A DNA stretch of 64,000 nucleotides from a virus: positions 1-64,000 of the IMG/VR virus record IMGVR_UViG_3300047557_002951. The stretch is one strand, 5' to 3'. Positions 938 through 56,282 of the stretch are shown here, piece after piece; position 1 is the first letter of the stretch, and the number at the start of each line of letters is the position of its first letter. The notes beneath the pieces are model-generated. The model was given only the letters and a program-made list of their open reading frames with translations, searched no databases and had not been told where the DNA came from. Both the position numbers and the translations under genes were made by a program.

Positions 938-1294
938 TTACCAAGGAAGTTCTTTGTTAATAATTTCTGGTTCAGGTGAAGGTGTTGGATATGCTCTAGA
1001 ATTAACCCTATCTATAATTCTTTTTTCCATATCTTCAATTCTTTGACTTTCAAGTATGTTCTGAATCCACCCAAAAACAATACCCTCAGTTAATTCATTA
1101 AAAGGAATAAAAGAATCTGAATTTGGATCGACCTCTTCTATTTCCAATGGGAAAGTTCTATCTACCCTCTCAAAATATTCTTCTGGTGCACTATCCGCAT
1201 AAGTATACCACTCAACCACAACATTAGAGACAGTATCAGTGCCGTTATTAATAACATTCAATGATTTTATTTTCTTTTCTTGTACAATCGCCAT
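938..1294 (-). CDS. small fibre-associated phage protein
   Basis: FIPFNELTEGIVFGWI motif and C-terminal LPW resemble small proteins found next to S74 fibres; own late promoter. Confidence 0.6.
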   Translation of the reverse strand: MAIVQEKKIKSLNVINNGTDTVSNVVVEWYTYADSAPEEYFERVDRTFPLEIEEVDPNSDSFIPFNELTEGIVFGWIQNILESQRIEDMEKRIIDRVNSRAYPTPSPEPEIINKELPW

Positions 1295-1316
1295 ATTACT
1301 AGATTAAATTTACTAT

Positions 1317-1324
1317 TATTTATA
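1317..1324 (-). promoter_or_regulatory. T4-type late promoter TATAAATA
   Basis: Exact consensus about 22 nt upstream of the ATG at 1294. Confidence 0.7.
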
Positions 1325-2279
1325 ATCCTATCATAGTTATTTCTTTTTCATTTTCAAAAAAATTGGAAGTATTTTCAGTTTCTTCAATTTTATAGTCGTC
1401 ACTTTCATCGTCATCATAAAGCATTCTCCAGAATTCAGTATTTTCACATTTTTTAAGAATATTATCAGATAAAATATCTTCTGGATTATTAGATGTTTTT
1501 TCAATAGTATCTCTTACTTCATGAATATCAACAAGTCCATATGCACGAGCATCATTCTCTTTATTATTATTCCCCAAACCATCAAATGAATGAGTATAAT
1601 ATTCTTCTCCAAGAAAATCATAAATTTTTTCTATTGTTTCCTGAGGATTAGAAACAAGGTCATTGTATTCCACAAAATGAATTGACTTTTCATTGCCTCT
1701 CATCAATGCTTCCCTAATTGATTCTACAGATTGACCCAAAATACCTTGTGAACTAGCAAGAAATTCACAACGATTATCATCAGTCAATGGAATATTCATT
1801 TTAATAAGCATTTCATCAATAAAATTAACTCTACCATTTACTTCAAATGGATTACGACGAATTAATGAAATAAATGAAGTTAAAATCTCAGAAGTATCTC
1901 TGACTGGACAAATGATTTTTGGTTCAATACCAAAGTATCCTTTAATATATTCAATTCTTGAGGTCCAGGAACGATTTTTATCAAATATAATTGATTCTTG
2001 GCGATCACTATAGTAAGTGGAAAGAACTGATCCAATAATCTCTCTTGCCTGTTCTGGTTTAGGATATGCATGATATAATTCATCATTTGACAATGACTGT
2101 TCAATTGCAACCATTGTAGGGACCACAGGAGAACTTGGTCCAGAATAAAATTTTGGATTTTGATTTAAAATTGTAGAAATTAAAGTGCTTCCTGATCGAG
2201 GAAGACCTGCCATAAAATAATATGTTTTATTCATTCTTCCCATCTCCTCACGGAGAATTTCTTTAATCATATCTTTCAT
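1320..2279 (-). CDS. PAPS-dependent sulfotransferase family protein
   Basis: 5'-PSB-like AGLPRSGSTL, DKNRSW, RD...SF, VEYNDLV..P; paralogue of 40742..41524. Confidence 0.85.
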   Translation of the reverse strand: MKDMIKEILREEMGRMNKTYYFMAGLPRSGSTLISTILNQNPKFYSGPSSPVVPTMVAIEQSLSNDELYHAYPKPEQAREIIGSVLSTYYSDRQESIIFDKNRSWTSRIEYIKGYFGIEPKIICPVRDTSEILTSFISLIRRNPFEVNGRVNFIDEMLIKMNIPLTDDNRCEFLASSQGILGQSVESIREALMRGNEKSIHFVEYNDLVSNPQETIEKIYDFLGEEYYTHSFDGLGNNNKENDARAYGLVDIHEVRDTIEKTSNNPEDILSDNILKKCENTEFWRMLYDDDESDDYKIEETENTSNFFENEKEITMIGL

Positions 2280-2291
2280 TTGTTTAATTTC

Positions 2292-3191
2292 CTATTGCTT
2301 ATCAATTGAGTTTACTATTTTATCAAAATCAAAAAGTTCTTCCTGTTCACCAAATGGATATTCAATTTCTGTCCCATTAAAATCAAAATCAAATAGATAA
2401 CTTCCGGGAAGTTTAAAATCATAAGGTATTTCCGTGCAAATATTATCATGAATATCATATCCAAATACTTTTGGACTTGTTCCATTCCACAATACTGTTG
2501 ACGGTAATTTTAATGCAGCAGCAGCATGTTGCATACAAGAATCAATTAAAACTCTTTTTTTACTATGCAGTAGTATACTAAAGAGTTCTATTAATGTCAA
2601 TGATTGTTCTGGTGTTGCAAAAATTGGTGTTGCATCTTTTAGTTTAAGAGAGTTTATTTTTGTGATCTGATAAATCTTATAATCATTTTTATAATGATCA
2701 ACAATTCTTTGTGCTAGATCTTCAGGCATATCCCTTGTCCAAGAATATGGTTTTGCATTGGTAGACATTAGACCACCATTCGTATGAATAACCATATAAG
2801 GTTTTTTATCTTTAGACCATACTTCTCTTGAAATATTTTTCTGAAGTTTATTAAATTTTATAATAGGTTTTTCATTTGCGTAATTAAGATTATATAACTT
2901 ACACCAATTTTGAATAAGTGGAAGTTTTTTGTGAATATGATCCGTTGTAAAATAAGGTTCATGATAAAAAATTAGGGAATCTTCATCTTGAATATAATTC
3001 TGATAGAAATAACTTGTATTTCCTAATTGATAAACTCTATCCACAAAAGGGAGATTTAAAAATATCTCAGAATACACACAAACTACTATTAACTTACGAT
3101 CTGGATAGTTATTTTTAATACATTTTGCAACTGCTGTTGCTGCAATATGTTTCCCAATTCCACCTTGAACATGAAAAATACTGTACTTCAT
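2292..3191 (-). CDS. glycosyltransferase, GT-B/GT9-like
   Basis: N-terminal GGIGKHI; C-terminal IDSCMQHAAAALKLPSTVLW...FGY. Confidence 0.75.
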   Translation of the reverse strand: MKYSIFHVQGGIGKHIAATAVAKCIKNNYPDRKLIVVCVYSEIFLNLPFVDRVYQLGNTSYFYQNYIQDEDSLIFYHEPYFTTDHIHKKLPLIQNWCKLYNLNYANEKPIIKFNKLQKNISREVWSKDKKPYMVIHTNGGLMSTNAKPYSWTRDMPEDLAQRIVDHYKNDYKIYQITKINSLKLKDATPIFATPEQSLTLIELFSILLHSKKRVLIDSCMQHAAAALKLPSTVLWNGTSPKVFGYDIHDNICTEIPYDFKLPGSYLFDFDFNGTEIEYPFGEQEELFDFDKIVNSIDKQ

Positions 3192-3952
3192 AGTCTATGT
3201 TTTTTATTAAAGGTTTCTCTTTTTTGTCTGTATAGTTTTACCATATTATGAGGAATGTCCCAATGTTTTCCATTGATAAAATGATCATATGCTATAAGAT
3301 TTTTGGAATCTAATTCAATTCTTTTTGAAATGTCACTGTTTGGATTATTAAACTTAGTAAGAGTTTCTGATATTGTTCCCTTGATTTTATTGGAGTTGAT
3401 AGCATAGATGTTCTTTGATTGCTGAGCAAAAAAATCATCTCCATACCATACTTGATATAATGAAGGTATAAGTTTATAAGATTCTTTTCTCATAAACATA
3501 CAAATTCCAAATGCCCATGCCTGAGAACCAATAGGTTTTTGAGGATCGTAATTTAGTTTTACAATCTCTTCTTTTGTATCAATAAAATCATCAATCTTAT
3601 AGTTATTCTGTCTTCCTTGAAGATTAACTCCAATTAAGTCTCCTTCTTGTAGATTGAAATCAAGAACCATATCAAATACTTCTGAATATACTTTAATATC
3701 ATCGTTCAAAATTCCAATAACATTAGAGTTTGAACGATAGTATCCTTCATTCCAAGCAGGATTTACAAAAATATTTCTTCCATATGAGACTAACTCAATC
3801 TTTGGATGATTTAATATCTCATATGATGGTCTTTTAGATTTGTTATTATCAATGATGATAACTTTTTTAATAGAGTTATGACTTACATAAGTTTGTAAAG
3901 ATTCTTCAAAATTACCAACAAACCACATTGTTGGAATAATAAGATCGATCAT
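3188..3952 (-). CDS. glycosyltransferase, GT2-like
   Basis: LIIPTM, IIIDN, VNPAWNEG, ILNDD, WYGDD. Confidence 0.8.
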   Translation of the reverse strand: MIDLIIPTMWFVGNFEESLQTYVSHNSIKKVIIIDNNKSKRPSYEILNHPKIELVSYGRNIFVNPAWNEGYYRSNSNVIGILNDDIKVYSEVFDMVLDFNLQEGDLIGVNLQGRQNNYKIDDFIDTKEEIVKLNYDPQKPIGSQAWAFGICMFMRKESYKLIPSLYQVWYGDDFFAQQSKNIYAINSNKIKGTISETLTKFNNPNSDISKRIELDSKNLIAYDHFINGKHWDIPHNMVKLYRQKRETFNKKHRL

Positions 3953-4599
3953 AAATTATTACTTTTTTCAAAGTTTCCTTTATACATTTTATTTCCAATA
4001 TGAGATACAGTATGCTTTGGATTCAACCAAATATCATAACCAAGTTCTTTTATCTTTTTAGTGAGTGTAATATCCTCTCCAATGAAAGAACCATTCTCAA
4101 AAGTATATTCGCAAATATTTTTTAGTTGCTTATTTCGAAAAAATAATTCTGTATTAGAATTCCACAAGTCTATGATTATTTTTCTGGATAGCTTGAGAAA
4201 TCCAGTTCCACATTTTTCTATTTTAATATAACCGTCAGTATCTTTTTCTTTGTCCTCACTCAACCAGACATTATATCCAATCTTTGTGTCTCCTTTATTA
4301 ACGACAGGAACTGTTATTACATCTTTTTCCGATTGGATAATTTCTATAAGTGCTTTTTCATCCCAGTATTCATCATCATCAATGAAAACCATTACATCAT
4401 AATTTTCATCATACGCAAGTTTAAAGAGTTCATTCCTTGCCATTGGCAAAATACTTTCATTAGCAAGAAAGACACATCGTATGTCTAGATTATTTTTAAT
4501 TCCTAGTTTGATAGATTCGCAAAGACTGTGAACAAAATATGCATCGACCTTTTGATCTAAACAAGGTGTTGCTATTAACACTTTTTTCATAAGTTTCAT
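3949..4599 (-). CDS. glycosyltransferase, GT-A fold
   Basis: VLIATP, ARNEL, FIDDD, GTGFLKL, GEDI, SHIG. Confidence 0.8.
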   Translation of the reverse strand: MKLMKKVLIATPCLDQKVDAYFVHSLCESIKLGIKNNLDIRCVFLANESILPMARNELFKLAYDENYDVMVFIDDDEYWDEKALIEIIQSEKDVITVPVVNKGDTKIGYNVWLSEDKEKDTDGYIKIEKCGTGFLKLSRKIIIDLWNSNTELFFRNKQLKNICEYTFENGSFIGEDITLTKKIKELGYDIWLNPKHTVSHIGNKMYKGNFEKSNNL

Positions 4600-4602
4600 G
4601 CA

Positions 4603-5382
4603 TTAAGGTAAAATAAATTTAAAAATACCACACGGATCCATCTCCCACCACTTGCCACTTAAATCTGAACCAAAATTAAATGACTCAGGATGTGCATGGT
4701 GATTATTATGATATCCTAATCCCCAACTTACTAAAGATAAAAATAAATTATTTTGTGTGTTGTCTGGAGTATCAAAATTACGATAGTTTCCTATAAATCC
4801 ACTATGCCCAAAAACATTTATAGAATTATCTACAACACAAGAAATCGCACCAGGCAAACAAATTGATGCTAAAGCAAATTTCCAATTTATAAAAGATACT
4901 GCGATTGGAACTAACCATAATAAATTTAATTGATTTTTGTGAAACCAAACATGATTTGGTTTCTTGAGTAAATCAGTCGCATATTTCATATTAACAACAA
5001 CATTAGATTCTGTTATTTCACTAGTCCATCCATAAAAAGCAAACCATTTACCCTTTGTAACTGGACTATGCAAATCATTTTCTGTATCTGAATACTTGTG
5101 ATGTTGTCTATGAGAAGCAGTCCAAGTAATTGAAGATCCTTGCCCAGATAATGCAGCAAAAAATAAAATGATATTCTCTTTCCACACTGGCAGTACAAAT
5201 TGTTTATGTGAAAAAATGCGGTGATATCCTACTTGAGCACCAAGACCAGCAATTAATATCCATCCAATAAATGTATAGATCAAATAATATGTGGGAATTA
5301 TCCCCGAAGCAAATAATGCAATCGTTATTGTACCAACAATAACTAAAGGAATAAAACTAAAAAAAGAATATTTACTAATCAT
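4603..5382 (-). CDS. desC: membrane fatty acid desaturase, delta-9/DesC-like
   Basis: Three His boxes HRIFSH, HRQHH, HNNHH; DLHSP; hydrophobic segments; KWWEMDP tail. Confidence 0.85.
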   Translation of the reverse strand: MISKYSFFSFIPLVIVGTITIALFASGIIPTYYLIYTFIGWILIAGLGAQVGYHRIFSHKQFVLPVWKENIILFFAALSGQGSSITWTASHRQHHKYSDTENDLHSPVTKGKWFAFYGWTSEITESNVVVNMKYATDLLKKPNHVWFHKNQLNLLWLVPIAVSFINWKFALASICLPGAISCVVDNSINVFGHSGFIGNYRNFDTPDNTQNNLFLSLVSWGLGYHNNHHAHPESFNFGSDLSGKWWEMDPCGIFKFILP

Positions 5383-5392
5383 ATATCACTTC

Positions 5393-5839
5393 TTAAAATT
5401 TTGATATCCACATTTTTTCATTTATTGGACTGTTTAGAGGTTCCCATCCTAACATCAACATAATTTTATCACTAATTTTTTTATTTTCTAATACTGCTAT
5501 AATACCTTTGGGTTTTTCATATTCTTGAAGATTTTTCAAATATTCTTTTGTTATTGTCGTCATATTATTTCCATTACGATTGATAATACGATTTCTATAT
5601 TTTGGATCAACATACATCCTATAAAAATAGAAAAGTTCGTTTTTAGGTTTGAATATATCTTTATATACTGTAGTTACTCCAACAATTTCGTTGTTTGAAT
5701 TTTTAGCAACTACTACTACTTGATCAATTCTCTTCAATTGTTCACTTTTAGGAAGAACATTATCCCACAGTTGTAGTATTTGTTTTTTATATGTGTGGGG
5801 TATGTTCTTATATACTACCTCAAAACTTAAATGATTCAT
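5393..5839 (-). CDS. putative GNAT-fold acyltransferase
   Basis: VVVAKN..EIVG and YRMYVDPKYRNR resemble GNAT beta-strands and motif A; LGW near the C-terminus. Confidence 0.55.
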   Translation of the reverse strand: MNHLSFEVVYKNIPHTYKKQILQLWDNVLPKSEQLKRIDQVVVVAKNSNNEIVGVTTVYKDIFKPKNELFYFYRMYVDPKYRNRIINRNGNNMTTITKEYLKNLQEYEKPKGIIAVLENKKISDKIMLMLGWEPLNSPINEKMWISKF

Positions 5840-5858
5840 CTCACTTTAAAATCTATTA

Positions 5859-6941
5859 CTAATTGGATTCTAACACTAATAGTCTAGATTTTAAAGTTTC
5901 TACTTCATCCGATAATTCTTTCACCGCATTAACTAAAACGGGAATCATATAATCTGAAGTGATCTTTAGATTCTCTGGGTCATTAGCATTTACAATGACT
6001 GGAGAATCACCTTCTGCCTCAAGAACATTTTGAGCACTGAAACCATATCTACGTTTACCTTCTTCATCTGTTAGACAACCAGTTTCACGATCCTTAAGTG
6101 CATATTCAATTGGGGTAATATTTTGAAGGAACCCTCTACCATGAGGAACATTGCCGAAAATGCATTTATCACGGCAGTCAGAAACTGTAGTCCAACCAAT
6201 CTGAATAAGAGCATTGGTGTGACTGCTATTACCCATAATGATGTGATTGGATTGTGTACTAACATTACAGAGACCCGATGCTCCATAACCAGAGCAACAA
6301 CCAAAGAATAGATTATTAGATCCAGTGGTGTTACAATATCCCGCAAAATAACCAATGAAGTTATTATTACTTCCAGTGGTGTTGCTGGATCCTGAATATG
6401 AGCCAATGAAGTTATTATCAAGTCCAGTGGTGTTATCGTATCCTGCAGTCATACCAAAAAAGTTATTACGACTTCCAGTGGTGTTATAGTATCCTGCTCT
6501 ATATCCAATGAAGTTGTTATTACTTCCAGTGGTGTTGCTGGATCCTGAATGATCACCAAAGAAGTTATTATCAGTTCCAGTGGTGTTCCTGGATCCTGCA
6601 CTTCTACTAAAGAAGTTGTTAAAACATCCATTGGTGTTGCAATGTCCCGCATATGTACCAAAGAAGTTATTATATTTTCCAGTGGTATTACAGTATCCTG
6701 CGTTATTCCCAAGGAAGTTGTTACCAGATCCAGTGGTATTACAGTATCCTGCGTTATTCCCAATGAAGTTATTATTACTTCCCGTGGTGTTACAGAATCC
6801 TGCATTTAAACCAATAAATGTATTATCAGTTCCAGTGGTTGATGTATTTCCTACACCAGCAGCAAAAAAATTATTGTTTCCTGGCCCAAAAAAATGTCGG
6901 TTATTATCTATAACAGTATTTCCGTTAATTTGAATTGCCAT
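5859..6941 (-). CDS. fibre/adhesin with 14-residue NTTG repeats and C-terminal peptidase S74 chaperone
   Basis: About 12 repeats of AGxxNTTGxxNNFxG (YadA-like beta-roll period); SDCRDK site, YGFSAQ, IPVLVNAVKEL coiled coil. Confidence 0.8.
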   Translation of the reverse strand: MAIQINGNTVIDNNRHFFGPGNNNFFAAGVGNTSTTGTDNTFIGLNAGFCNTTGSNNNFIGNNAGYCNTTGSGNNFLGNNAGYCNTTGKYNNFFGTYAGHCNTNGCFNNFFSRSAGSRNTTGTDNNFFGDHSGSSNTTGSNNNFIGYRAGYYNTTGSRNNFFGMTAGYDNTTGLDNNFIGSYSGSSNTTGSNNNFIGYFAGYCNTTGSNNLFFGCCSGYGASGLCNVSTQSNHIIMGNSSHTNALIQIGWTTVSDCRDKCIFGNVPHGRGFLQNITPIEYALKDRETGCLTDEEGKRRYGFSAQNVLEAEGDSPVIVNANDPENLKITSDYMIPVLVNAVKELSDEVETLKSRLLVLESN

Positions 6942-7015
6942 TTACTGCTCCCCCATAACGCAAAAGATGTCATGTTTTATCATCTTTGTGTGTATAATAG
7001 GTAATTTACTGCTAC

Positions 7016-7029
7016 TATTTATATAAATA
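7016..7029. promoter_or_regulatory. palindromic late promoter TATTTATATAAATA
   Basis: TATAAATA on minus at 7016-7023 (upstream of 6941) and on plus at 7022-7029. Confidence 0.7.
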
Positions 7030-7034
7030 TGATC

Positions 7035-7319
7035 TCATAGCAACTCCAATTTACAACCACCATTCACATCATAAACCACTTTGACTTGATAATCTACACA
7101 CATATTTGCCCTCCAAAAAGCATTTTTGAACTCTTCTGTTTCTTTCTCTGGGTATTTGGCAACAAGTTTGAAGTTCTCATCATACTCATTACAATTCACA
7201 TCATTAAGATAATGAAGATTTAGGAAACGATTGAGTTGTTGTTTTTGTTCGTGGTCAAGTTGAATTCTTACAAATGTGATGAATTCGTTTGATACTGTGA
7301 GTTCTTCGTGGTCAGTCAT
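7035..7319 (-). CDS. hypothetical protein
   Basis: 94-aa ORF, ATGA-coupled. Confidence 0.75.
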   Translation of the reverse strand: MTDHEELTVSNEFITFVRIQLDHEQKQQLNRFLNLHYLNDVNCNEYDENFKLVAKYPEKETEEFKNAFWRANMCVDYQVKVVYDVNGGCKLELL

Positions 7320-7555
7320 TTAAGTTTTTGTAGTTGGTAAATAAGATGTTCAATGTCTTCAACTTCTACACATTTAACAGAATTGCCCCAACCATTTACA
7401 TCATAATCAAAATTATAAGCAAAGTTATCCAGCAAATACTGAAGAGTAGCAATACATACACGAGCACGATCACCTATTTTGGGTCGTAAAGTATATTCTT
7501 CTGTGACCTTGATTAGTGTCTCTGCGTGGGTTTTTTGTGGTAATGATTTAGTCAA
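7316..7555 (-). CDS. hypothetical protein
   Basis: 79-aa ORF, coupled to both neighbours. Confidence 0.75.
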   Translation of the reverse strand: MTKSLPQKTHAETLIKVTEEYTLRPKIGDRARVCIATLQYLLDNFAYNFDYDVNGWGNSVKCVEVEDIEHLIYQLQKLK

Positions 7556-7839
7556 GGTTTCACCGTTTGAATGAGAATTCGTTCTTTGGTAGTATCACGC
7601 TTTTTTGCAAGATACTCAATCGCTTCTTGATTTCGTTTGGGCAACTGATTCCATTCTACATGCTTTTCAATATAAGGTGATGGAAGAAATTTATCAATCT
7701 TATGGCATACTTTGTCCAAAGAGTTAGAAATAAACTCTGCCGTTGCTTGTGCAATCGCAAACGGACCAAGCACAATCAACCGAATTGCAACAAAATGTGG
7801 AATGTATTTAAGATAGGGATAGGTTTTGGTTTCAGTCAT
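7552..7839 (-). CDS. hypothetical protein, possible membrane segment
   Basis: 95-aa ORF with hydrophobic FVAIRLIVLGPFAIA. Confidence 0.75.
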   Translation of the reverse strand: MTETKTYPYLKYIPHFVAIRLIVLGPFAIAQATAEFISNSLDKVCHKIDKFLPSPYIEKHVEWNQLPKRNQEAIEYLAKKRDTTKERILIQTVKP

Positions 7840-8009
7840 TTGCTTAAAAGTTGATTGAGATCTTTTACGATGCGTTGTGCTTCTTCTGGTGAGTTACATT
7901 CTTCTACGATGTAACTGAAACCGTTGGAGAATGTTCGGCGGATTTTGTTGCCCTCAACAGAATAAGACCCATACCCAACTGGAACTTGATTGAGAATTGT
8001 TCTGAACAT
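7836..8009 (-). CDS. hypothetical protein
   Basis: Start moved to MFRTILN, downstream of the -10 box at 8031-8036. Confidence 0.7.
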   Translation of the reverse strand: MFRTILNQVPVGYGSYSVEGNKIRRTFSNGFSYIVEECNSPEEAQRIVKDLNQLLSK

Positions 8010-8030
8010 CAATTTGTTTGAACTGAAGAC

Positions 8031-8088
8031 ATTATAGACCAAAAAGGCACCTGTGAAGATGCCCTGTGCCAGTTATTCAGGTGTCATA
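8031..8088 (-). promoter_or_regulatory. repeated early element copy 2
   Basis: TGTGCCAGTT-attc-AGGTGTCA from 8065; minus-strand stem ggcatc/ggtgcc plus T-tract; TATAAT at 8031-8036; 28-nt spacer. Confidence 0.75.
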
Positions 8089-8448
8089 TTCTGCTATTGC
8101 TTCTTGCATAGCATTTGCGATCCTTTCATTTAAGTTATCGTCAGGATCATTCAGAATCTGACGAATAGGATCATTATACTTTCTGTCTATTTGTTTGACC
8201 CTATCCATAAAACTGCAATCACCATGATCACCAGAATAAAGATAGTCAATCTCTTTCATAATTTCTGAAGTCTTTTGTAGTTGTGGGACATAAGAATTAA
8301 GAAAGTCAATAACTTCAGGTGAGTGTCCTTGGTGGTATCCCCATTCATCACTCATGAAATTGTTTTTAATTTCTTGGTTTAATTCATCAGCAAATTGCGA
8401 GACTTTATAGTAAACATAACCACAATCATTGAAATGTCCGCCGCTCAT
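8077..8448 (-). CDS. phage hypothetical protein
   Basis: 123 aa; MSGGHF N-terminus and YLYSGDHG motif. Confidence 0.75.
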   Translation of the reverse strand: MSGGHFNDCGYVYYKVSQFADELNQEIKNNFMSDEWGYHQGHSPEVIDFLNSYVPQLQKTSEIMKEIDYLYSGDHGDCSFMDRVKQIDRKYNDPIRQILNDPDDNLNERIANAMQEAIAEYDT

Positions 8449-8660
8449 TTTTTGTTCTCCAATTTATCAATTACTTGTGAAGCATATTCAGCAAGATCAA
8501 ACATGGTATCATCGCTACAGTAATTTTCTACATGATCAATTAAAAAATCGTCCATCGCCAGAAAAATGTGAGCTGCTCTTTTCTTGTCATGATCTAAAAT
8601 TGCAGTATGAGGATCTGCAATGATTTTTGTGGTGATGTCAAAAAGTTCGTTGAGTGTCAT
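8445..8660 (-). CDS. hypothetical protein
   Basis: 71-aa coupled ORF. Confidence 0.75.
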   Translation of the reverse strand: MTLNELFDITTKIIADPHTAILDHDKKRAAHIFLAMDDFLIDHVENYCSDDTMFDLAEYASQVIDKLENKK

Positions 8661-8851
8661 GAGTTTGCTTCAATGATTGTTTTGATTTGTTTGAGATTGT
8701 TCAGATGTAGTTCTTTTTCGTCATACTCTTCAGTCAAATAGTCAACACAATTATCTTCAAAATTTGTTTCTTCTCTAATCTCCCATGAAATCGATTCAAG
8801 ATCTGCCTCTAGATCATTAATGAAATGATTTAAAGTTTCAATTAAAGTCAT
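8657..8851 (-). CDS. acidic hypothetical protein
   Basis: 64-aa coupled ORF. Confidence 0.75.
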   Translation of the reverse strand: MTLIETLNHFINDLEADLESISWEIREETNFEDNCVDYLTEEYDEKELHLNNLKQIKTIIEANS

Positions 8852-9126
8852 TCAAATTCACCTGGTTTTGGTTCTGGAACTGGAGGGAGAGGAGGAAGAA
8901 CTTGTGGTTGTTGAATAATTACTGGCTCTTGCTTTGGTTGTTCTTTTACTTCGTTTAGTTGTTCTTCAAGTTGAGTTATTTTTTCTTCAAAGGCAGAAAC
9001 ATCTGGCTGTTGGATTTGTTCAACTGGTGGATTCTGGCTTTCTTGTGATAGCTTATATCCGGCAGCCGCCGCGCCAAAAATACTGGCAAGAGCAGCAACA
9101 ACAGAAACAGTCTTGGAAAAACTCAT
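8848..9126 (-). CDS. membrane-anchored protein with coiled coil and Pro-rich tail
   Basis: N-terminal VSVVAALASIFGAAAAGY; LPPLPPVPEP; start at MSFSK. Confidence 0.75.
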   Translation of the reverse strand: MSFSKTVSVVAALASIFGAAAAGYKLSQESQNPPVEQIQQPDVSAFEEKITQLEEQLNEVKEQPKQEPVIIQQPQVLPPLPPVPEPKPGEFE

Positions 9127-9128
9127 AG

Positions 9129-10832: not shown

Positions 10833-10845
10833 CGATTACAAGAAT

Positions 10846-10873
10846 ACTATAGCAAAAAAATTTGTGAGATCAA
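10846..10873 (-). promoter_or_regulatory. sigma70-like promoter
   Basis: TTGATC-16nt-TATAGT with extended TG. Confidence 0.55.
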
Positions 10874-11367: not shown

Positions 11368-11390
11368 GAATTTGGGTCTTATGTTTGGTT

Positions 11391-11448: not shown

Positions 11449-11453
11449 TCAGT

Positions 11454-11870: not shown

Positions 11871-11885
11871 AATTAAAAAATAAAA

Positions 11886-12456: not shown

Positions 12457-12457
12457 A

Positions 12458-47581: not shown

Positions 47582-47582
47582 T

Positions 47583-48242
47583 TTATCCCTCTACTGGTTC
47601 TGGTTGTTCTTTAATCACAACAGCATAAACAGCATCAATTTCCACACAAGCATCAATTTCTTGAAGTTTTGCTAACTCCCAGTCAAATGCTGCCTGAACA
47701 ACGGCATCAATCTCACTTATAATCGTTTGAAGTTCTTCTGTAGTAATCTCCAACCAAGTATTCTGGAACTTAAAGTTATGAGGTCCTGGAGATGCTGCTA
47801 ACTTGCTTGCTAAAAGAAGTCTCTCTTCTCTTGAAGTTGATACTTCTACTTCCGTATTATTGACTATGAGAGTGATGATAGTATTTTCTTTTTCTCTTCT
47901 TGCTGGAGCAACCTCTTGCTTTCTAATATTTTTAACTTCTTCTAAGGTCTTATCTGTGATTGGATAAGTGAATACAACCTTTACTGGAACCTCATTTTCT
48001 TTTACAATTTCCCAAGTGAAGTTTCCAACATTATGATACTTTGGGTCGTGTTCTGGTATTACTCTTTCAGTTGGAACAAGATGAGTAAGACCATCACTAA
48101 AATGAATAGGAAGTGAAGAAAAACTTTGTGATGATATTCTTTCTTCTACTTCAAGTTCTTCTAACTCTTCATTGATATAACGAACATTCAATCCAAAAGG
48201 ACCAAGTTCTAATGAGTTATTATGAATAAGTGCGATTTCCAT
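47583..48242 (-). CDS. DUF4376-like tail-associated protein
   Basis: Start moved to MEIALIH after CATAAATA (48256-48263); V...R...E..NFKF..W..VQAAFDWE pattern. Confidence 0.65.
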   Translation of the reverse strand: MEIALIHNNSLELGPFGLNVRYINEELEELEVEERISSQSFSSLPIHFSDGLTHLVPTERVIPEHDPKYHNVGNFTWEIVKENEVPVKVVFTYPITDKTLEEVKNIRKQEVAPARREKENTIITLIVNNTEVEVSTSREERLLLASKLAASPGPHNFKFQNTWLEITTEELQTIISEIDAVVQAAFDWELAKLQEIDACVEIDAVYAVVIKEQPEPVEG

Positions 48243-48264
48243 TGGTCTTTTTAGGTATTTATGT

Positions 48265-49149
48265 TTATGAGAATGGGTATTCTGCTGAGATTCCTGCTTG
48301 GACTGCTGCTGTATGAGAAGATATACTAGCACTAACTTGTTTCCAGTTGGTTCCACCAGCAAATGTGGTGATTGGAGTGGATCTATTACCTACTATTACT
48401 GCATTTCCAAGTCTTCCATAAGACCCAAGACCCCAAGTCCATAAGGTTCCATCAGTTTTGATTGCTGCTGTATGAAAATATCCACTACTTACTTGTTTCC
48501 AGTTGGTTCCTCCAGCAAATGTAGTGACTGGAGTTGATACATTGGTTGTTACTGCGTTTCCAAGTTGTCCAGTATTTCCACGACCCCAAGTCCATAGAGT
48601 TCCATCGGTTTTAATTGCTACTGTATATTGGTATCCACTACTCACTTGTTTCCAGTTGGTTCCTCCAGCAAATGTGGTGACTGGAGTGGATCTACTGGTT
48701 ATTGCTGCATTTCCAAGTTGTCCATTAGTTCCACCACCCCAAGTCCATAAGGTTCCATCAGTCTTGATTGCTGCTGTATGATTACCTCCAACACTTACTT
48801 GTTTCCAGTTGTTCCCTCCAGCAAATGTGGTGACTGGAGTGGATATAGTACCTGTTGTTACTCCATTTCCAAGTTGTCCACTAGTTCCAATTCCCCAAGT
48901 CCATAAAGTTCCATCAGTTTTGATTGCTGCTGTGCAATTACTAGCACCACTAACTTGTTTCCAGTTGGTTCCTCCAGCAAATGTGGTGACTGGAGTGGAT
49001 ATATTGGTTATTGCTGCATTTCCAAGTTGTCCACTAGGTCCAGAACCCCAAGTCCATAAAGTATCTCCAACATATTGGTCAATCAACCAATAATCAGTTA
49101 CAAAATAGTTTTCTAAGTCACCTTCTGGCGAGAAAAACTGATTAGGCAT
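48265..49149 (-). CDS. RCC1/BLIP-II repeat protein, 5 repeats
   Basis: Same scaffold, five LWTWG units. Confidence 0.9.
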
Positions 49150-51655
49150 CTAACTTATTTTCCAGATTTTCAATTCTAATTTGCTGTTCTTTAATTGCTT
49201 CAATCAAAAGGCCAACCATATTAGAGTAATTTACTGACTTAATGCCATTACTATTTGTTTCGACAAGTTCTGGGAGTATATTTTCTACTTCTTGCGCAAT
49301 CAAACCAAGTGAAGGTTTGTTATTATTTACCCAATTGAATGTAACTCCTTGGAGTTTTTTTATAGTTTGAATTGGGGATTCAATTGGTTTTATGTTAGTT
49401 TTATGTGTTGCGTCTGATAATGAATTAAAGATATTAGCGAATAGAGTTCCAGTTAGTGGGTTAAATTGTAAGTTAGTTGATGAAACATTTACACTAGTTA
49501 CGGTTCCGCTAATCGCATCATCAAATATGGGATATCTGATTGCATCACTTGTCGTATCATCAGTGATAGTAAATCCACCATTATTTGCACCTTGGACACC
49601 TTGTGCTCCCTGGACACCTTGTGTACCTGTTGCTCCTTGTGCACCTTGTGTACCTGTTGCTCCTTGTGCACCTGTTGCTCCCTGGACACCTTGTGTACCT
49701 GTTGCTCCTTGTGCTCCTTGTGCACCTTGTGTACCTGTTGCTCCTTGTGCTCCTTGTGCACCTTGTGTACCTGTTGCTCCTTGTGCTCCTTGTGCACCTT
49801 GTGTACCTGTTGCTCCTTGTGCACCTGTTGCTCCCTGGACACCTTGTGTACCTGTTGCTCCTTGTGCTCCTTGTGCACCTTGTGTACCTGTTGCTCCTTG
49901 TGCTCCTTGTGCACCTTGTGTACCTGTTGCTCCTTGTGCTCCTTGTGCACCTTGTGTACCTGTTGCTCCTTGTGCACCTGTTGCTCCCTGGACACCTTGT
50001 GTACCTGTTGCTCCTTGTGCTCCCTGGACACCTTGTGTACCTGTTGCTCCTTGTGCACCTGTTGCTCCCTGGACACCTTGTGTACCTGTTGCTCCTTGTG
50101 CTCCCTGGACACCTTGAGCACCTTGAACTCCTTGTGCGCCTTGAACTCCTTGAGCACCTTGGACACCTTGAAGAGCTTGAGGTCCTTCTGGACCTTGAGC
50201 ACCTTGGACACCTTGAGCACCTTGGGCACCCTGACGGCCCTGAGCGCCTGTTGCGCCTTGAACTCCTTGTGCTCCTTGTGCTCCTTGAACACCTTGTGCT
50301 CCTTGTGGACCTTCAATTCCCTGTGGACCTGTAGCACCTTGAACACCTTGTGCTCCTTGTGGCCCTTGGACTCCTTGAAGAGCTTGAGGTCCTGTAGCAC
50401 CTTGAACTCCTTGAGCTCCTTGAGCTCCTTGAGCTCCTTGACGACCTTGTGCGCCTTGAGCCCCCACAGCACCCTGGACTCCCTGGGCACCTTGAACTCC
50501 TTGAGCACCTGTTGCTCCTTGAATACCTTGAGCACCCTGTACTCCCTGAGCTCCTTGAACACCTTGAGCACCTTGAGCACCTTGTGCGCCTTGAGTCCCC
50601 ACAGCACCCTGGACTCCCTGGGCACCTTGTGCACCTTGTGCACCTTGGGCACCTTGAACTCCTTGTGCTCCCTGCTCTCCTTGAGGACCAACAATAGTTC
50701 CAACATCATTCCAATTAGATCCAGTATATATCCACAAATTTCCAGTATCTGCCGCAATTACACCGTCTCCAATTGATGGAGGATACCAAGAAAAAAGAGT
50801 ATCATCTGAAGTTAATGTAGTATTTGGACTTGAAGTAGTAACCGATGGGACAGAACCAACTATTGTTACTGAAGTTCCATTTTGTCCTTGTGCTCCTTGA
50901 GCACCTTGAGCACCTTGAACTCCTTGGGCACCTTGAACTCCTTGGGCACCTTGAACTCCTTGGGCACCTTGGGCACCTTGGGCACCTTGGGCACCTTGGG
51001 CACCTACAGAACCTTGAACTCCTTGGGCACCTTGAACTCCTTGAGAACCCTGGACACCTTGAGAACCCTGGACACCTTGAGGTCCAGTACCACCCTGGAC
51101 ACCTTGAGGTCCAGTAGCACCCTGGATACCTTGGGATCCTTGAATACCTTCAACTCCTTGTGAACCTATGGCACCTTGAACACCTTGTAGACCTGTGGCA
51201 CCTTGAATTCCTTGAAATCCTTGGATACCTTGAAATCCTTGAGCACCAACAGCACCCTGGACTCCTTGTGCTCCTTGTGGACCTTGAATTCCTTGTGGGC
51301 CTGTGGAACCTTGAACTCCTTGAGCACCTTGAAATCCCTGAAGACCTTGACTGCCTAGCGGTTCACCCCAATATGCTGAATTTATACCATTTGATATTAA
51401 AACTTGTCCAGCAGACCCAGAACCGCTTTCTGTATATAAAGCCCCACTGAATCTGATATCACCAAGAACATCTAACTCTGATGTAGTTAAGATTCCGCTA
51501 ATCGATACATTCCCAAGAATATCTAATTTTTCTTTTGGCTGGGTAGATCCAATCCCAACATTAAACCCTGCGTCAGAATTTATAATTATATTTTGTGTAG
51601 AGTCATCAACTTGAATAAAATTTGCAAATTGAGATAGTTCTCTATTTATAGACAT
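49142..51655 (-). CDS. collagen-like fibre protein with peptidase S74 chaperone
   Basis: Two GXQ/GAT tracts around a small domain; [21 protein letters not shown]. Confidence 0.9.
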
Positions 51656-51684: not shown

Positions 51685-52551
51685 TTATACTGCAGTAGTG
51701 CTTAGATTTCCGGAGTCATCAACGATTAATCTGTATGCAGTTCCATTTGGAGAAGTTAAAATAACTCCATGTGATGTATTTAATCCTACAGATACATCAC
51801 CACCAATAATAGTCAATTTTGATGTTGCATTTGTTGTTCCTATTCCAACATTAGATGTTGTGTGAATTCCCGAATTATTTGAACTCCAATATGAATAATA
51901 ATTTATTGTGGATCCCTCACTAGATCCGGATCCAGTGCTAACTGTAGCATATGATAAAATATCAATAACTTCTCCACCAAAACAAGAATTATTTAATATA
52001 ATGCTTGTTCCATTTGATGCAACATAATCCGACTCAGTTAGTCTGATGCCATTTATATAAACATCCACAAATCCAACATTATAAGATGTAGTAAATTCAG
52101 TTTGTCCAACTGTTGCTACTGTTGATATACCAGTTCTTAATGTTGGAAGTTGAAGACTTATGTCAATGGAACTTGATCCAGCTCCAACCCAAGAAGATGG
52201 ATTTGTCAGAACAAACTCATTGCTGACAAAATTAATATCAGTGACTTGGTTTACACCACCAACAATTACTCCCGCATCACGAACTGTAATAGATCCAGGT
52301 ATAAAAACTCCATTAGAAATGATATCGGTTTGTTTTGCCCAATATCTATTTCCAGACCCAGTATTATCGGAGACTAAAAAATAAAGATCTGAAATATTTC
52401 CAATATATGGGTTTATCCCAACAGAAGAAACCCCAATAATAGGATCTCCTAAATCTGGTTCTGCTTGCTCCAGTCCTAAAAATTGATAACGATCGCTATT
52501 AATTCCTGATTGTGGAGTTTTTTTAACTCTACCTGAGACTATTTTTGCCAT
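51685..52551 (-). CDS. virion structural protein
   Basis: GQTEF..VDVYINGIRL..DY repeat domain; NVGIGTT; LTSPNG..YRL.VDDSG.L tail. Confidence 0.75.
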   Translation of the reverse strand: MAKIVSGRVKKTPQSGINSDRYQFLGLEQAEPDLGDPIIGVSSVGINPYIGNISDLYFLVSDNTGSGNRYWAKQTDIISNGVFIPGSITVRDAGVIVGGVNQVTDINFVSNEFVLTNPSSWVGAGSSSIDISLQLPTLRTGISTVATVGQTEFTTSYNVGFVDVYINGIRLTESDYVASNGTSIILNNSCFGGEVIDILSYATVSTGSGSSEGSTINYYSYWSSNNSGIHTTSNVGIGTTNATSKLTIIGGDVSVGLNTSHGVILTSPNGTAYRLIVDDSGNLSTTAV

Positions 52552-52555
52552 TTAC

Positions 52556-52906
52556 TTATTGTTTTGCAGTTTCGAGGATACTTAATACAATATTTAATTT
52601 ACTATCTTCTGTTGCTTGAACTTTGATTACATCATTAGTCTCAAGTGCCAATCTCCCATCTGGAACTAAATTTACACTATCATTAGGTGGGACATAAGCA
52701 CCATTTGCAAATTTATAATCTTCCGGATTTTCACTTAAACGAGAATGCCAAGCAGTAACTTGTACAGTGCTGTCAGATGTTAAATTTGTAACATGAGCTA
52801 GAATGACAATAGCTGCTACACCAACAGGACAAGTATAAATTCCAACTTGACTTGATGTTATGTCTTTGCGAATTGTTTTAAATCTGTTAAGTGCTACTGC
52901 TGCCAT
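52556..52906 (-). CDS. small virion structural protein; paralogue of 30208..30537
   Basis: ALNRFKTI..IYTCPVG..ILAHVTN..RLALETND..SILETAK. Confidence 0.8.
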   Translation of the reverse strand: MAAVALNRFKTIRKDITSSQVGIYTCPVGVAAIVILAHVTNLTSDSTVQVTAWHSRLSENPEDYKFANGAYVPPNDSVNLVPDGRLALETNDVIKVQATEDSKLNIVLSILETAKQ

Positions 52907-52907
52907 T

Positions 52908-55900
52908 TTAATTACCTAATGCGATGATGAGTGGTGTTATTGTGTTTGTTATGCTTTGATCAAATGATCTTCCAGTCAATGTTCCAGTTAATTGATTTAC
53001 TACTAGACCATCACCAATTCTAAAATTACCTGCTTGATCTGTGCTGGTGTAAACGACCTCTCCTCCATTTAATTTCACAACTTCATTTTCTGGTATTACA
53101 ACTCCACCAAGAGCAGGTTTTGCAGTATTAATATTATTTCCAGATCCAACCCACTCAAAAGAATGAGAAGATGTAATCTGAAGACTCAATCGATTTAAAT
53201 AAACAGTGGTTCCAGCACTTACTGTATTATTTAGATTTGTATTGAGAGTAACTGTTGAAATTCCTGCAAAAGGTAAAGTTGCAGATTCAATTGTGTAATA
53301 TATTGGATATAAATTCAATGATGCCGTTGCAGTTACTCCAGTACCTATAGGTCCTGCAATTGCAATTTGTGGGTTATCGATAAATCTATATTGATTGCCA
53401 GTACTAATAATATCAATAGAAGTTACAGACCCATTTTCAATATTTGCAATTGCTTCAGCGCGAATACCATTTGGGCCAGTTGGTTCATCGATTACTACTA
53501 ATGGAGATTGAGTATAACCAGATCCACCATTAGTTACCTCTATACTTTGTACAGTATAATAAATTTCTCCAAAATGAACAGTTTGCCCATCATAAGGTCT
53601 TAGATTTCCGATGCCAGAAACCTCAACAATTGCTTGCTCCAATTCTGCATCAGTGTTTGCAATTCCAGTATAACGATAAATTGACTTAGTATTATAATCA
53701 CCAACACCATCACTAACTAAACCTTTTGTACCGAAGGAAGAGTTGGAGTTTGTAATATCACATTGACCACCAGAACCAGTAAAGATTGCAATATCGTCAC
53801 AGATCGTAAAGATAGAAACTAACTGAGAGTAAGCACCATTAGTGATTGAAACACCAATACCACCTTGATTGTATTGAGTGTAAGAGTCAACACTCATTGT
53901 ACCAGTTACACCAATATCATCTTTATCTCCTGGTTCTGCATCAAATCCATCAACCTTCATTCCAATTGATTTTGGAATGAAGTTGGTGCAGTTTCTAATG
54001 TATGGACCTTGTGTAATAGGTCCAACACCAGGAGAATATGGTGGGAATACAACACCACCAGAAACATAAGTATGTGGAATTGTAGAAACTCCAGTATTGA
54101 CTACAAAAGTAGTTCCTGTTCCAATAACCTGAAGAACTTTAAAATCATATCCAAGATTTCCTGTTGGATAAAGTGTTGTTGTACCTGCTCCACTTGTACA
54201 AGAGAATTTTAGATCGTGGAGTTTTACAAACTGACCAACCTTTACAGTAGCACCAGGAGCAGTGATAGTTGTAATGCCTGTTACATTATCATAAGAAGCA
54301 GTTGTAACTCCAATTGCACGGTTAACAACAAAACCACCACCAATATAATTATGTGCAATTGTTGAAATTCCAGTATTGATTACAAACGAACCGTCGCTAT
54401 TAACGGATGTTACATCAAACTCATAACCATAAGCACCTGATGGATATTTTTGAGTTCCAATAGAACCACCAGAAGTACAATTGAATAAAAGATCTCTTAC
54501 TTCAACAATATCTCCAGCTTTGACTGAGAGTGTTGGGGCAAGAATTGTTGTTGTCCCTGAAGTGTGATCATAAACAGCACTTGTAACACCAATTATAGAA
54601 TCAGTTCCAAGACCTGCATTTGCGGGGAATGAAGTATTAATTCCAGCACCAAGAACTGTAAGACCATTATCAAGGATGGATGTTACAACACCTACGCAAG
54701 AATAGATTGCAGAAACAACATTTGCACAAGATCCAATATCTTCATTAGATCCAGTGGCATCATCTGCCTGCATTGCTAGATCTTTAACCTGACTATAGGT
54801 TGACTGATAGTTTCCAGTCCAAGAAACATTATTGATGCAAGATCTTGCGATTCCTGCAGCATAGTTCAGTGCATCAATCGTTGCTGTTTTAACACTATAT
54901 CCATTTGGATCAGTGCCAGTAATGTGTAATAATGCGCCAGAATCACTATAGTAAGACTTACCTGCACCAACACACTTGAGATTTCCACCTCTTGTAATGT
55001 CGTGGATGATTGCCTTCAGTACATCTTTAATATCATCGCTACAATTTACAGGTGCTGTTGGAGTTCCTGATCCATCAACAACAACAAATGCAGGACTCTT
55101 ATAGTCGGTACTAGTTAAGTATCCAACTGTCTCTGCTGCGATAAAGTCAAGATTATAACGAATCATTCTTGCCGCATCAAAGAAGCGATCTGTTGCAACA
55201 CCAGCAAGTGGTTGTAGTGAAACAATCGCAGCACCATCACTCATATCAGGACCAATGAAACTCAAGTCCGTGATATGACAACTATTGTTTACATAGAATA
55301 AGTCTCTATTTGTATATTTTGGAGTAACTACACAGTTACGAAGTTCTGTACCTTCAACCGCAACTCTCTTGGAAAGATAGATTGGATTTTCCTCAATATA
55401 AACACCAGGGAATACCTTAATTGTATCACCAGGAAAAGCAATGGCGGCAGCTGCTTTAATTGTTCTTTTAGAATCATTTTCAGTTAAACCACTATTTGTA
55501 TCATTGCCATTTTGTGTTACAAAAATTGTCTTACCAATCGGGAAATAAGAATCAATGTTGACAACACCTTTACCTGGATTTTCTGTTGTGGTTAATCGAA
55601 CTCCAATCCCTGCGGTAATTTGGGTTACAATTCCAGATAATACTTCCCCATTCCCCAAATATGTAAGAGCATTAACGGTATTAGTAGTGACAGTTTCTGC
55701 TACTGACACATTTGTAGCGGTAACAAATCCTAAAGTGCTGATTCCAGAAACATTCAATTGAGTTACTGATGCAATTCCACCAACAACATTGATTGCTGTG
55801 GTTGAAGTGCCAACAGTGATTTCAGTGCTATTATTCCACGCTGGGGATGATCCTGGACCTCCTGATAATAAAACTTGACCCAATTCTCCGGAAAACTTGT

Positions 55901-56282
55901 ATCTTTGAAAACTAAAAGTTACTGTTGTAAGTCCAGAGTTGGTATGATTTGGAACAATTCCAAGAGAACTTGCACCAATACTAACAATTCTTGTATTATT
56001 TTGTATGAATGTTCCTGTTACATAATCACCAACTAAAAGTCCAGAAGTATTAATTCCAGAAATAAAGTCTAGAGATGTTGCTGAAGCGATACCAGTAGTA
56101 GATCCAATACTGGTATTGGAAGTTGGGACATAAATTCCACCACTTATTGATAAGTCACCATTAACGGATAAAATATAGTCCGGAGTAGTTGTGCCGATAC
56201 CAACTTTCTGACCTTCGGTGAAGATCAAATTGTCTGCTACTTCCAGACCATTCTTTACGACAAACGACTTGTTGACACTCAT
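52908..56282 (-). CDS. tail fibre/spike-like protein with beta-helix region
   Basis: KSFVVKNGL N-terminus; FVTQNGNDTNSG; PYIRNCTNF; DSYTQYNQGG; STDQAGNFRIG. Confidence 0.82.
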   Translation of the reverse strand: MSVNKSFVVKNGLEVADNLIFTEGQKVGIGTTTPDYILSVNGDLSISGGIYVPTSNTSIGSTTGIASATSLDFISGINTSGLLVGDYVTGTFIQNNTRIVSIGASSLGIVPNHTNSGLTTVTFSFQRYKFSGELGQVLLSGGPGSSPAWNNSTEITVGTSTTAINVVGGIASVTQLNVSGISTLGFVTATNVSVAETVTTNTVNALTYLGNGEVLSGIVTQITAGIGVRLTTTENPGKGVVNIDSYFPIGKTIFVTQNGNDTNSGLTENDSKRTIKAAAAIAFPGDTIKVFPGVYIEENPIYLSKRVAVEGTELRNCVVTPKYTNRDLFYVNNSCHITDLSFIGPDMSDGAAIVSLQPLAGVATDRFFDAARMIRYNLDFIAAETVGYLTSTDYKSPAFVVVDGSGTPTAPVNCSDDIKDVLKAIIHDITRGGNLKCVGAGKSYYSDSGALLHITGTDPNGYSVKTATIDALNYAAGIARSCINNVSWTGNYQSTYSQVKDLAMQADDATGSNEDIGSCANVVSAIYSCVGVVTSILDNGLTVLGAGINTSFPANAGLGTDSIIGVTSAVYDHTSGTTTILAPTLSVKAGDIVEVRDLLFNCTSGGSIGTQKYPSGAYGYEFDVTSVNSDGSFVINTGISTIAHNYIGGGFVVNRAIGVTTASYDNVTGITTITAPGATVKVGQFVKLHDLKFSCTSGAGTTTLYPTGNLGYDFKVLQVIGTGTTFVVNTGVSTIPHTYVSGGVVFPPYSPGVGPITQGPYIRNCTNFIPKSIGMKVDGFDAEPGDKDDIGVTGTMSVDSYTQYNQGGIGVSITNGAYSQLVSIFTICDDIAIFTGSGGQCDITNSNSSFGTKGLVSDGVGDYNTKSIYRYTGIANTDAELEQAIVEVSGIGNLRPYDGQTVHFGEIYYTVQSIEVTNGGSGYTQSPLVVIDEPTGPNGIRAEAIANIENGSVTSIDIISTGNQYRFIDNPQIAIAGPIGTGVTATASLNLYPIYYTIESATLPFAGISTVTLNTNLNNTVSAGTTVYLNRLSLQITSSHSFEWVGSGNNINTAKPALGGVVIPENEVVKLNGGEVVYTSTDQAGNFRIGDGLVVNQLTGTLTGRSFDQSITNTITPLIIALGN

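Follow-up and report, generated by a model that had tools for sequence, protein, structure and literature searches.

The 64,000-nt window analysed here is the first 64 kb of the 159.6-kb viral contig IMGVR_UViG_3300047557_002951 (CheckV completeness ~75%), the genome of a freshwater (lake) T4-like cyanomyovirus whose nearest isolate is Synechococcus phage S-SRM01 (~74% nucleotide identity over fragments), with P-SSM2 and P-SSM5 also related. The minus strand carries all real genes of the window, and three groups of them, at 51655-36076, 30193-15243 and 6941-938 (cassettes i, ii and iii), share a common plan in which one or two fibre genes with an S74 intramolecular-chaperone tail are followed by a block of enzymes that includes glycosyltransferases (GTs). 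We read them as three operons, each combining fibres with glycan-tailoring enzymes, that decorate the fibres of the virus itself, and place the probability of this reading at about 0.5. The association of fibres with enzymes is not random, and each cassette is a conserved module in diverged uncultured relatives. What is new is an arrangement that is fibre-led, multi-enzyme, threefold in one T4-like cyanophage and conserved in many uncultured relatives.

The proposed mechanism begins with three late-expressed operons, each led by one or two trimeric fibres with a self-cleaving S74 chaperone tail. The fibres are collagen-like in cassettes i and ii and beta-roll-like in cassette iii, RCC1 propellers being interleaved in cassette i, and soluble enzymes, taken to be cytoplasmic, follow. 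GTs bearing tetratricopeptide repeats (TPRs), likely the initiators on protein, would recognise the fibre proteins either ahead of assembly or while it is under way, and would begin their O-glycosylation. The putative initiators are a GT2-TPR fusion with the architecture of Clostridioides difficile SgtA and a TPR-GT9-fold enzyme combining the OGT/SPY architecture with the fold of TibC. Additional enzymes of the GT-A and GT9 folds would lengthen the glycan, to be tailored by methyltransferases (FkbM, CmcI-like), sulfotransferases dependent on 3'-phosphoadenosine-5'-phosphosulfate (PAPS) and 2-oxoglutarate (2OG) oxygenases, with sugar donors coming from the host and from a GDP-sugar cluster that the phage encodes outside the window. 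Oxygenases, methyltransferases and sulfotransferases are accordingly read as glycan-tailoring enzymes; late expression, the role of the fibre as acceptor and each of the chemical steps are what we infer.

Gene content, folds, operon polarity and conservation, by comparison, are directly observed. Enzyme blocks follow all four S74 genes of the window (three units) on the same strand, and Pfam, PHROG and sequence comparisons agree in all three cassettes with the sequence-only reading, a model's annotation made before any database search, in placing S74 fibre units ahead of enzymes. A Pfam scan of 50 window proteins upheld nearly all of its domain calls, comprising two sulfotransferases, PF13640, 2OG_Oxy5, FkbM, Methyltransf_24, the GT2-Methyltransf_11 (GT2-MT11) and GT2-Methyltransf_24 (GT2-MT24) fusions, a 988-aa multidomain fusion, three RCC1 proteins and a desaturase. 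Two labels are putative, namely "transglutaminase-like" for 37966-38652 and the TPR in a 510-aa GT2-methyltransferase protein.

Conservation was followed by linkage scans in IMG/VR from three enzyme anchors (the PF13640 oxygenase, sulfotransferase a and the TPR-GT) and one fibre anchor (the beta-roll fibre), with loci dereplicated at 95% for the upstream walks from enzyme anchors. Walks from the TPR-GT reached an S74/collagen fibre in 20 of 21 resolved cases; those from sulfotransferase a reached an S74 fibre in 9 of 10, with the GT-A/GT-A/GT9-fold/sulfotransferase block conserved. The PF13640 oxygenase has 323 viral relatives, and of the best 80 loci 65 have the fusion enzyme behind it and 59 the GT2-MT11 protein; its 28 resolved upstream walks ended at an S74/collagen gene (14), an RCC1 gene (1) or an operon boundary (13). 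Because a control scan with peptide deformylase returned 3 loci, too few for a base rate, the polarity of the arrangement was taken as an internal control: S74/collagen genes lie upstream versus downstream of enzyme anchors in ratios of 33:1 and 13:0 (46:1 in total). In the reverse test, the GT/GT/GT9/sulfotransferase block stands directly behind the beta-roll fibre in 18/18 fibre-anchored loci. When the S74 tail of cassette ii's 290-aa collagen served as the only query, 4 loci were found, and PF13884 searches in five long relatives took the place of that scan. In the TPR-anchored loci nearly the whole of cassette i, including the interleaved RCC1 genes, is in the same order down to 52% anchor identity, and the order of module cores is held across anchor identities of ~45-93%. 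Comparison across relatives, the check that the sequence-only reading had called for, thus finds a non-random linkage.

The same comparison shows how the cassettes vary. In G001, a 258-kb relative with 100% completeness, cassette i is kept, whereas a shorter collagen accompanied by other enzymes takes the place of cassette ii; a search of this genome for the beta-roll fibre and for the GT9-fold gene, the sole member of its block searched for, found neither. In most loci it is a beta-roll fibre that precedes the sulfotransferase block, in some a collagen fibre. Among cultured phages, S-SRM01 carries cassette i as gp334-gp348, and DSL-LC02 carries a collagen-plus-enzyme block.

Such order could in principle mean only that operon ends tolerate insertion. 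Mixed-function enzyme genes (auxiliary metabolic genes, or leftovers of transferred clusters) would then gather behind fibres irrespective of function, in the fibre region that is the hyperplastic part of T4-like cyanophage genomes. Sullivan et al. raised lipopolysaccharide (LPS) genes as possible "stuffer DNA" (PMC3037559); the desaturase and GNAT genes of cassette iii are clearly inserts of this kind, and the FkbM, GT2_266 and 228-aa genes of cassette i come and go. An order of module cores kept over anchor identities of ~45-93%, the 46:1 polarity, the 18/18 result of the fibre-anchored test and the domain fusions that bind members together, such as that of DUF8361 with GT2, 2OG and methyltransferase domains, all argue against accretion, which we consider improbable as an account of the cassettes.

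Cassette i runs from a collagen through RCC1, DUF4376, RCC1, TPR-GT, 2OG_Oxy5, two uncharacterised ORFs, a CxxCxxCC protein and a third RCC1 gene to a sulfotransferase block. Its 837-aa collagen-like fibre (49142-51655; Pfam Collagen 1.3e-81, Peptidase_S74 4.5e-14) has a triplet composition of G-[AV]-Q and G-A-T-G-T-Q, with Thr 25 times at Y and 15 times at X. In the collagens of relatives, Thr occupies 18% of Y positions on average and GPT/GxT triplets are frequent. To judge by composition, these triplets and the Thr-rich ones of the 837-aa collagen are candidate acceptor sites. The fibre is followed by an RCC1 propeller (294 aa), a DUF4376 protein (259 aa) and a second RCC1 propeller (414 aa) at 46337-49149 (Pfam RCC1/WD40_RLD and DUF4376), whose order is constant in most TPR-anchored loci; a third propeller of 394 aa lies at 41548-42732 (Pfam 4.8e-77). 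The first two propellers and the DUF4376 protein are non-enzymatic, fibre-associated proteins inside this cassette.

The most informative enzyme of cassette i is the 446-aa TPR-GT (44968-46308; NATAAATA 29 nt upstream), with TPRs predicted at residues 1-170 and a GT9-fold glycosyltransferase at 186-446. Its AlphaFold2 (AF2) model (pLDDT 88) has SPY/OGT as top Foldseek matches (E 4e-9) at TM-scores of ~0.3, and residues 186-446 take a GT9 fold with Z 16.9 to 3tov and 15.2 to TibC. By Z-score the catalytic domain is nearer to GT9 than to GT41, and the Pfam scan of window proteins found no PF13844 (GT41) match in it. On the predicted structure, the overall architecture is like that of OGT/SPINDLY and the fold is that of the adhesin heptosyltransferase TibC. 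Structure prediction thereby bears out the TPR-GT9 call made from sequence, and it places a second protein, the 299-aa product of cassette iii, in the same fold.

Between the TPR-GT and the third propeller, at 42754-44984, are a 2OG_Oxy5 oxygenase (152 aa), a 259-aa ORF, a DUF8361-like 218-aa ORF and a CxxCxxCC protein (129 aa), assigned from Pfam, Atlas features and the Cys motif. A profile search of the 218-aa ORF (43097-43753) against PDB sequences gave nothing, leaving its DUF8361 likeness as the sole assignment. In many metagenomic relatives a DUF8361-like domain is fused to a GT2/DUF6445/methyltransferase enzyme (proteins of 1200-1480 aa), which points to a functional tie between them. 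The cassette ends at 36076-41524 with a sulfotransferase, a GT2, a 231-aa ORF, an FkbM methyltransferase, a 228-aa ORF, a GT2-MT24 fusion and DUF6165 (Pfam); core genes of this block occur in 26-30 of 30 representatives, GT2_266, FkbM and the 228-aa ORF being optional.

Cassette ii starts with two G-[AV]-Q collagens of 2785 aa (21836-30193) and 290 aa (20961-21833), each S74-tailed by Pfam, S74 matches and composition. With the 837-aa fibre they make three collagens whose PF13884 scores of 67.3, 62.1 and 58.4 bits exceed the gathering score. They are followed by a PF13640 (P4H/OGFOD1-like) 2OG-Fe(II) oxygenase at 20136-20846 (Pfam 6e-17; PDB OGFOD1 1.3e-4; NATAAATA 39 nt upstream), in which the P4H-type residues H107-x-D109, H177 and R191 (HxD...H...R) are kept in 14 homologues. 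The rest of the cassette (15243-20139), joined by 4-nt overlaps throughout, encodes a 988-aa methyltransferase/GT2/GT2/TPR/DUF6445 fusion, a Methyltransf_24 protein and a GT2-MT11 fusion, in that order. The 988-aa protein (GT2 3.8e-14, TPR_8 1.5e-5), which has no transmembrane (TM) segment and lies in the same operon behind two collagen genes, ends in a 2OG-type DUF6445 domain with an HCD...H triad that belongs to the Syn9 gp52 family.

In cassette iii the order is fibre, weak GNAT, desaturase, two weak GT-A candidates, 299-aa ORF, sulfotransferase and DUF7936. The 360-aa fibre (fib3; 5859-6941, TATAAATA 82 nt upstream) consists of ~18-aa NNFxG..AG..NTTG repeats and an S74-like tail. Its PF13884 score of 19.6 bits is under the cut-off of 22; an SDxRxK motif and a C-terminal helix are nevertheless present, and its PHROG matches are to families of tail-spike and virion proteins. 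On these sequence features it is probably a member of the S74-tailed fibres. The conserved block behind it (938-4599; Pfam, PDB profile and AF2) comprises GT-A candidates of 216 and 254 aa, both weak (E 0.0018 and 0.075), the 299-aa ORF, a sulfotransferase (319 aa) and a DUF7936 protein (118 aa). A profile search of the 299-aa ORF against PDB sequences gave nothing; structure prediction then resolved the fold, its AF2 model matching GT9 structures at Z 21.0, 19.0, 17.3 and 16.8 versus 10.3 for the next family, and by modelled fold this is a GT9-type glycosyltransferase. Small DUF7936 genes like the one at 938-1294 recur in several relatives and in phage DSL-LC02, where they stand between fibre genes or behind them, and may encode a fibre-assembly factor.

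Between this fibre and its enzyme block (4603-5839) lie a GNAT-like ORF and a membrane fatty-acid desaturase, recognised by Pfam, TM helices and three His boxes. The sequence-only reading had counted both as cassette enzymes. The desaturase is genuine, the GNAT match is weak (E 0.0016), and neither belongs to the conserved cassette: the two are genome-specific inserts. The desaturase groups with lipid auxiliary metabolic genes (PMC5776448), its nearest phage homologue being that of Pelagibacter phage Mosig (33% identity).

Expression signals and gene spacing fit the operon picture in part. Stop and start codons, described earlier as mostly coupled, overlap by 4-98 nt at 13 of 27 cassette gene junctions, seven of these being 4-nt ATGA-type overlaps. 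The late promoters claimed at the same time stand in respect of motif placement and fall in respect of frequency. Strict TATAAATA is not above chance in the window (7 observed, 4.9 expected), and for this reason placement alone was used: NATAAATA is enriched in intergenic DNA, with 7 of 15 sites within 8.8% of the window, and precedes the fib3 fibre, TPR-GT and PF13640 oxygenase genes at distances of 27-81 nt. A peptide deformylase gene (12619-13041) has the same late-type motif 28 nt upstream, as structural genes do. A perfect TATAAATA at 51643-51650 falls inside codons 2-4 of the 837-aa collagen gene as annotated; it is either a coincidence or a sign that the gene really starts, or has its promoter, elsewhere than the ORF call implies.

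Fibre-first polarity, TPR-fused soluble GTs and absent membrane machinery fit a protein target. Predicted TM helices among the cassette enzymes are confined to the desaturase, in line with the earlier view of the GTs as soluble, and GtrA/B/C, a priming GT, Wzx, Wzy and WaaL have no Pfam match in the 50 window proteins, although host machinery could substitute for them. The closest functional model is C. difficile SgtA, a soluble GT2 with a C-terminal TPR encoded beside the collagen-like BclA3 gene, which was found experimentally to place O-GlcNAc on Thr of collagen repeats (PMC7157674). Here the GT2+TPR segment of the 988-aa fusion lies directly behind two collagens, and the 837-aa collagen has G-A-T-G-T-Q blocks, so that a similar role may be suggested by analogy. 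The setting differs, as both BclA3 and Bacillus BclA belong to the spore exosporium and the present case is a phage virion fibre. Moreover, the enzyme set is far larger (2OG oxygenases, methyltransferases, sulfotransferases and GT9-fold enzymes), and the two collagens nearest the GT2-TPR are Thr-poor, the 2785-aa one having Thr at Y 7 times and Lys at Y 3 times in 490 triplets.

A second precedent concerns bacterial operons for which it was predicted that 2OG oxygenases, sulfotransferases and methyltransferases act on collagen-like or tail-collar proteins encoded alongside them (Iyer, Abhiman, de Souza and Aravind 2010; PMC2938197). Cassette i has the whole of this set, with a 2OG oxygenase, a sulfotransferase, a methyltransferase and a collagen-like fibre, and the likeness extends to the fibre as proposed substrate within the same operon. 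The bacterial proposal, however, is protein hydroxylation followed by sulfation, whereas here GTs dominate and the collagens are without Pro/Lys, which makes the glycan the more likely site of sulfation and oxidation. Virion glycosylation is also established in mycobacteriophages, where, by the accounts given in PMC12619734 and PMC12801897, phage GT and methyltransferase operons decorate virion proteins. The targets named in those accounts are C-termini of capsid and tail-tube proteins, whereas the candidates here are T4-like cyanophage fibres and the enzymes are of other families, with sulfotransferases added. Glycosylation of DNA was considered and set aside, since TPR fusions, sulfotransferases and coupling to fibre genes do not fit it.

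Several observations weigh against fibre decoration and deserve to be taken together. The two collagens upstream of the PF13640 oxygenase contain 9 Pro (all at X) and ~3 Lys in 531 triplets; no Pro is among the listed Y-position residues of the 2785-aa and 290-aa proteins, so that X-Pro-Gly substrate sites are lacking, and this scarcity makes classic collagen hydroxylation unlikely. In four long relatives ~5-6 of 11 S74 fibres have recognisable enzymes behind them. With this result, and with the sulfotransferase block found behind fibres of two kinds, the earlier statement that each fibre travels with its own enzymes proves too strong. The GNAT and desaturase genes interrupt cassette iii in this genome only, being absent from the cassette iii of every relative. 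The oxygenase also occurs in long enzyme-only runs without a fibre, and one oxygenase-bearing fragment shows no S74 match in 103 kb. Bacterial PF13640 homologues (45-55% identical) include one in a Wza/Wzz/Wzx/GT2/Wzy/GT4 polysaccharide cluster. Fibre-less islands and this Wzx/Wzy cluster imply that the oxygenase may tailor a glycan rather than a protein, and by homology the family may act on envelope-bound glycans. LPS heptosyltransferases are the best-known enzymes with the GT9 fold. Finally, published cyanophage studies assign such genes to LPS or the host surface (PMC1079782, PMC12801897) or see in them a means of modulating 2OG levels (PMC3037559).

Collagen chemistry of the animal or mimivirus type, acting on Lys/Pro, was rejected on the composition of these collagens and those of relatives; Lys numbers 0-3 per collagen ORF in the 40 relatives' ORFs listed (47 found). 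Mimivirus L230 and animal LH3 are similar in that an enzyme fusing a 2OG oxygenase to a glycosyltransferase occurs in a virus with a collagen-like protein. Lys is, however, essentially absent from the present collagens, so the chemistry cannot match, and no PLOD-type domain was detected.

The homologues of the oxygenase outside cyanophages are instructive. The polysaccharide-cluster member is that of Belliella buryatensis (~50% identical), which lies between GT2 and Wzy in a Wza/Wzz/Wzx/GT4 cluster (locus positions 1465-14270); unannotated Algoriphagus and Cognataquiflexum loci have gene sizes and order similar to it. On the chromosome of Prochlorococcus sp. MIT 0916 (158-175 kb) a homologue is grouped with two TPR-GT41 enzymes, a TPR-2OG_Oxy5 fusion and DUF6165, in an island that also holds a large TPR protein, a B12/radical-SAM enzyme and a methyltransferase. 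The phage enzyme sets may have a cellular counterpart in this island. In Streptomyces phages KimJongPhill (genes 110-107) and Zuko, far from the cyanophage lineage, a homologue (~32% identical) is followed by overlapping GT-methyltransferase-GT genes.

The most serious competitor to fibre decoration is remodelling of the host surface, in which the enzymes would build or tailor an LPS O-chain, exopolysaccharide (EPS), S-layer or pilin glycan with the host's carrier lipid and export machinery. Such changes would mask the receptor of the linked fibre, leading to superinfection exclusion or keeping progeny from sticking to debris. In phage T5 the receptor-blocking llp lies next to the receptor-binding oad. 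A receptor-masking set would likewise be expected to travel with its cognate fibre, so that linkage, and comparative genomics alone, cannot separate the two readings. The Wzx/Wzy neighbourhood of the oxygenase family, the GT9-fold enzymes as archetypal LPS heptosyltransferases and the enzyme-only islands of some relatives would all suit host remodelling, and so would a cluster elsewhere on the contig. This GDP-sugar/fucosyltransferase cluster (~112.9-126.9 kb, ~60 kb away), a further point in disfavour of fibre decoration, comprises Gmd, an epimerase/reductase, a DegT aminotransferase, a ManC-type cupin, DUF4254, GT10, three GT11, GT25, GT2 and a FUT8-like enzyme, about eight GTs in all, and adjoins a host-like OprB porin gene with an SLH domain. 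The sequence-only reading had seen no flippase, polymerase, ligase or nucleotide-sugar gene, which holds for the window and fails for the contig, given the sugar genes at 114-127 kb.

That cluster is the counterpart of the "LPS gene clusters" of P-SSM2, S-SM2, S-SSM7 and S-SCSM2R, which also have many GTs. These clusters lie near hli, phoH and tRNA genes, include nucleotide-sugar synthesis and are not fibre-led, whereas the window cassettes are fibre-led, lack sugar-synthesis genes and contain TPR fusions. Host remodelling is how publications on cyanophages and pelagimyophages usually explain such genes (PMC1079782, PMC7029224, PMC12801897). It nevertheless leaves the interleaved RCC1 propellers, constant in order, without a role, and no cassette has a membrane-embedded enzyme, priming transferase, flippase, polymerase or ligase. 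Being translationally coupled to late structural genes and strictly fibre-first in polarity, the cassettes have the look of protein-glycosylation islands, and the TPR fusions point to protein substrates. On this evidence we hold host remodelling to be unlikely for the cassettes, while giving it more credence than any other competitor of fibre decoration. The glycosylated fibre coat put forward from sequence is consequently supported in part, by linkage and the TPR-GTs; its further claim that this happens rather than remodelling of host LPS goes beyond the evidence.

A role in small-molecule chemistry would have the enzymes make or modify a secondary metabolite or peptide, or consume 2-oxoglutarate and so manipulate NtcA signalling. 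Metabolite synthesis was proposed for Syn9 dioxygenase arrays by the same authors who described the bacterial operons (PMC2938197), and the DUF6445 domain of the 988-aa fusion is of the Syn9 gp52 family; 2OG modulation was proposed by Sullivan et al. (PMC3037559). Most of the genes are nevertheless glycosyltransferases, the Pfam scan of the window has no nonribosomal peptide synthetase, halogenase or ATP-grasp enzyme, and the 2OG domains occur in fusions with GT2 and TPR domains and are linked by coupling to the fibre genes. This explanation is therefore judged very improbable, the least credible of those weighed.

If the fibres are glycosylated and sulfated, then host recognition, particle stability and evasion of grazing or defence would hinge on chemistry now annotated as host LPS or metabolism, in a virus group that is one of the most abundant in lakes and oceans. 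Virion glycosylation would then extend from actinophages to T4-like phages of Gram-negative phototrophs. It is tempting to go further and suppose that T4-like cyanophages and many other aquatic phages carry swappable cassettes of fibres and tailoring enzymes, which lay a methylated, sulfated glycan coat on collagen-like, beta-roll and RCC1 proteins. Many "LPS genes" and "2OG oxygenase auxiliary metabolic genes" would accordingly be virion-glycosylation machinery, with a counterpart in Prochlorococcus. We offer this generalisation tentatively, at somewhat less than even odds. Fibre decoration is directly testable, as the cultured phages S-SRM01 and DSL-LC02 carry such blocks.

Upstream of cassette i, at 51685-56282, are fibre-module proteins of 1124 aa, 116 aa (with a TM helix) and 288 aa, with TATAAATA 46 nt upstream of position 56282. 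No Pfam match and no enzyme was found among them, and their homologues occur in fibre regions of relatives. The 116-aa ORF (52556-52906) and a 109-aa ORF (30208-30537) lie directly downstream of large paralogous fibre-module proteins (1124 and 620 aa, respectively), and this pairing of a small ORF with a large fibre-module protein recurs in relatives.

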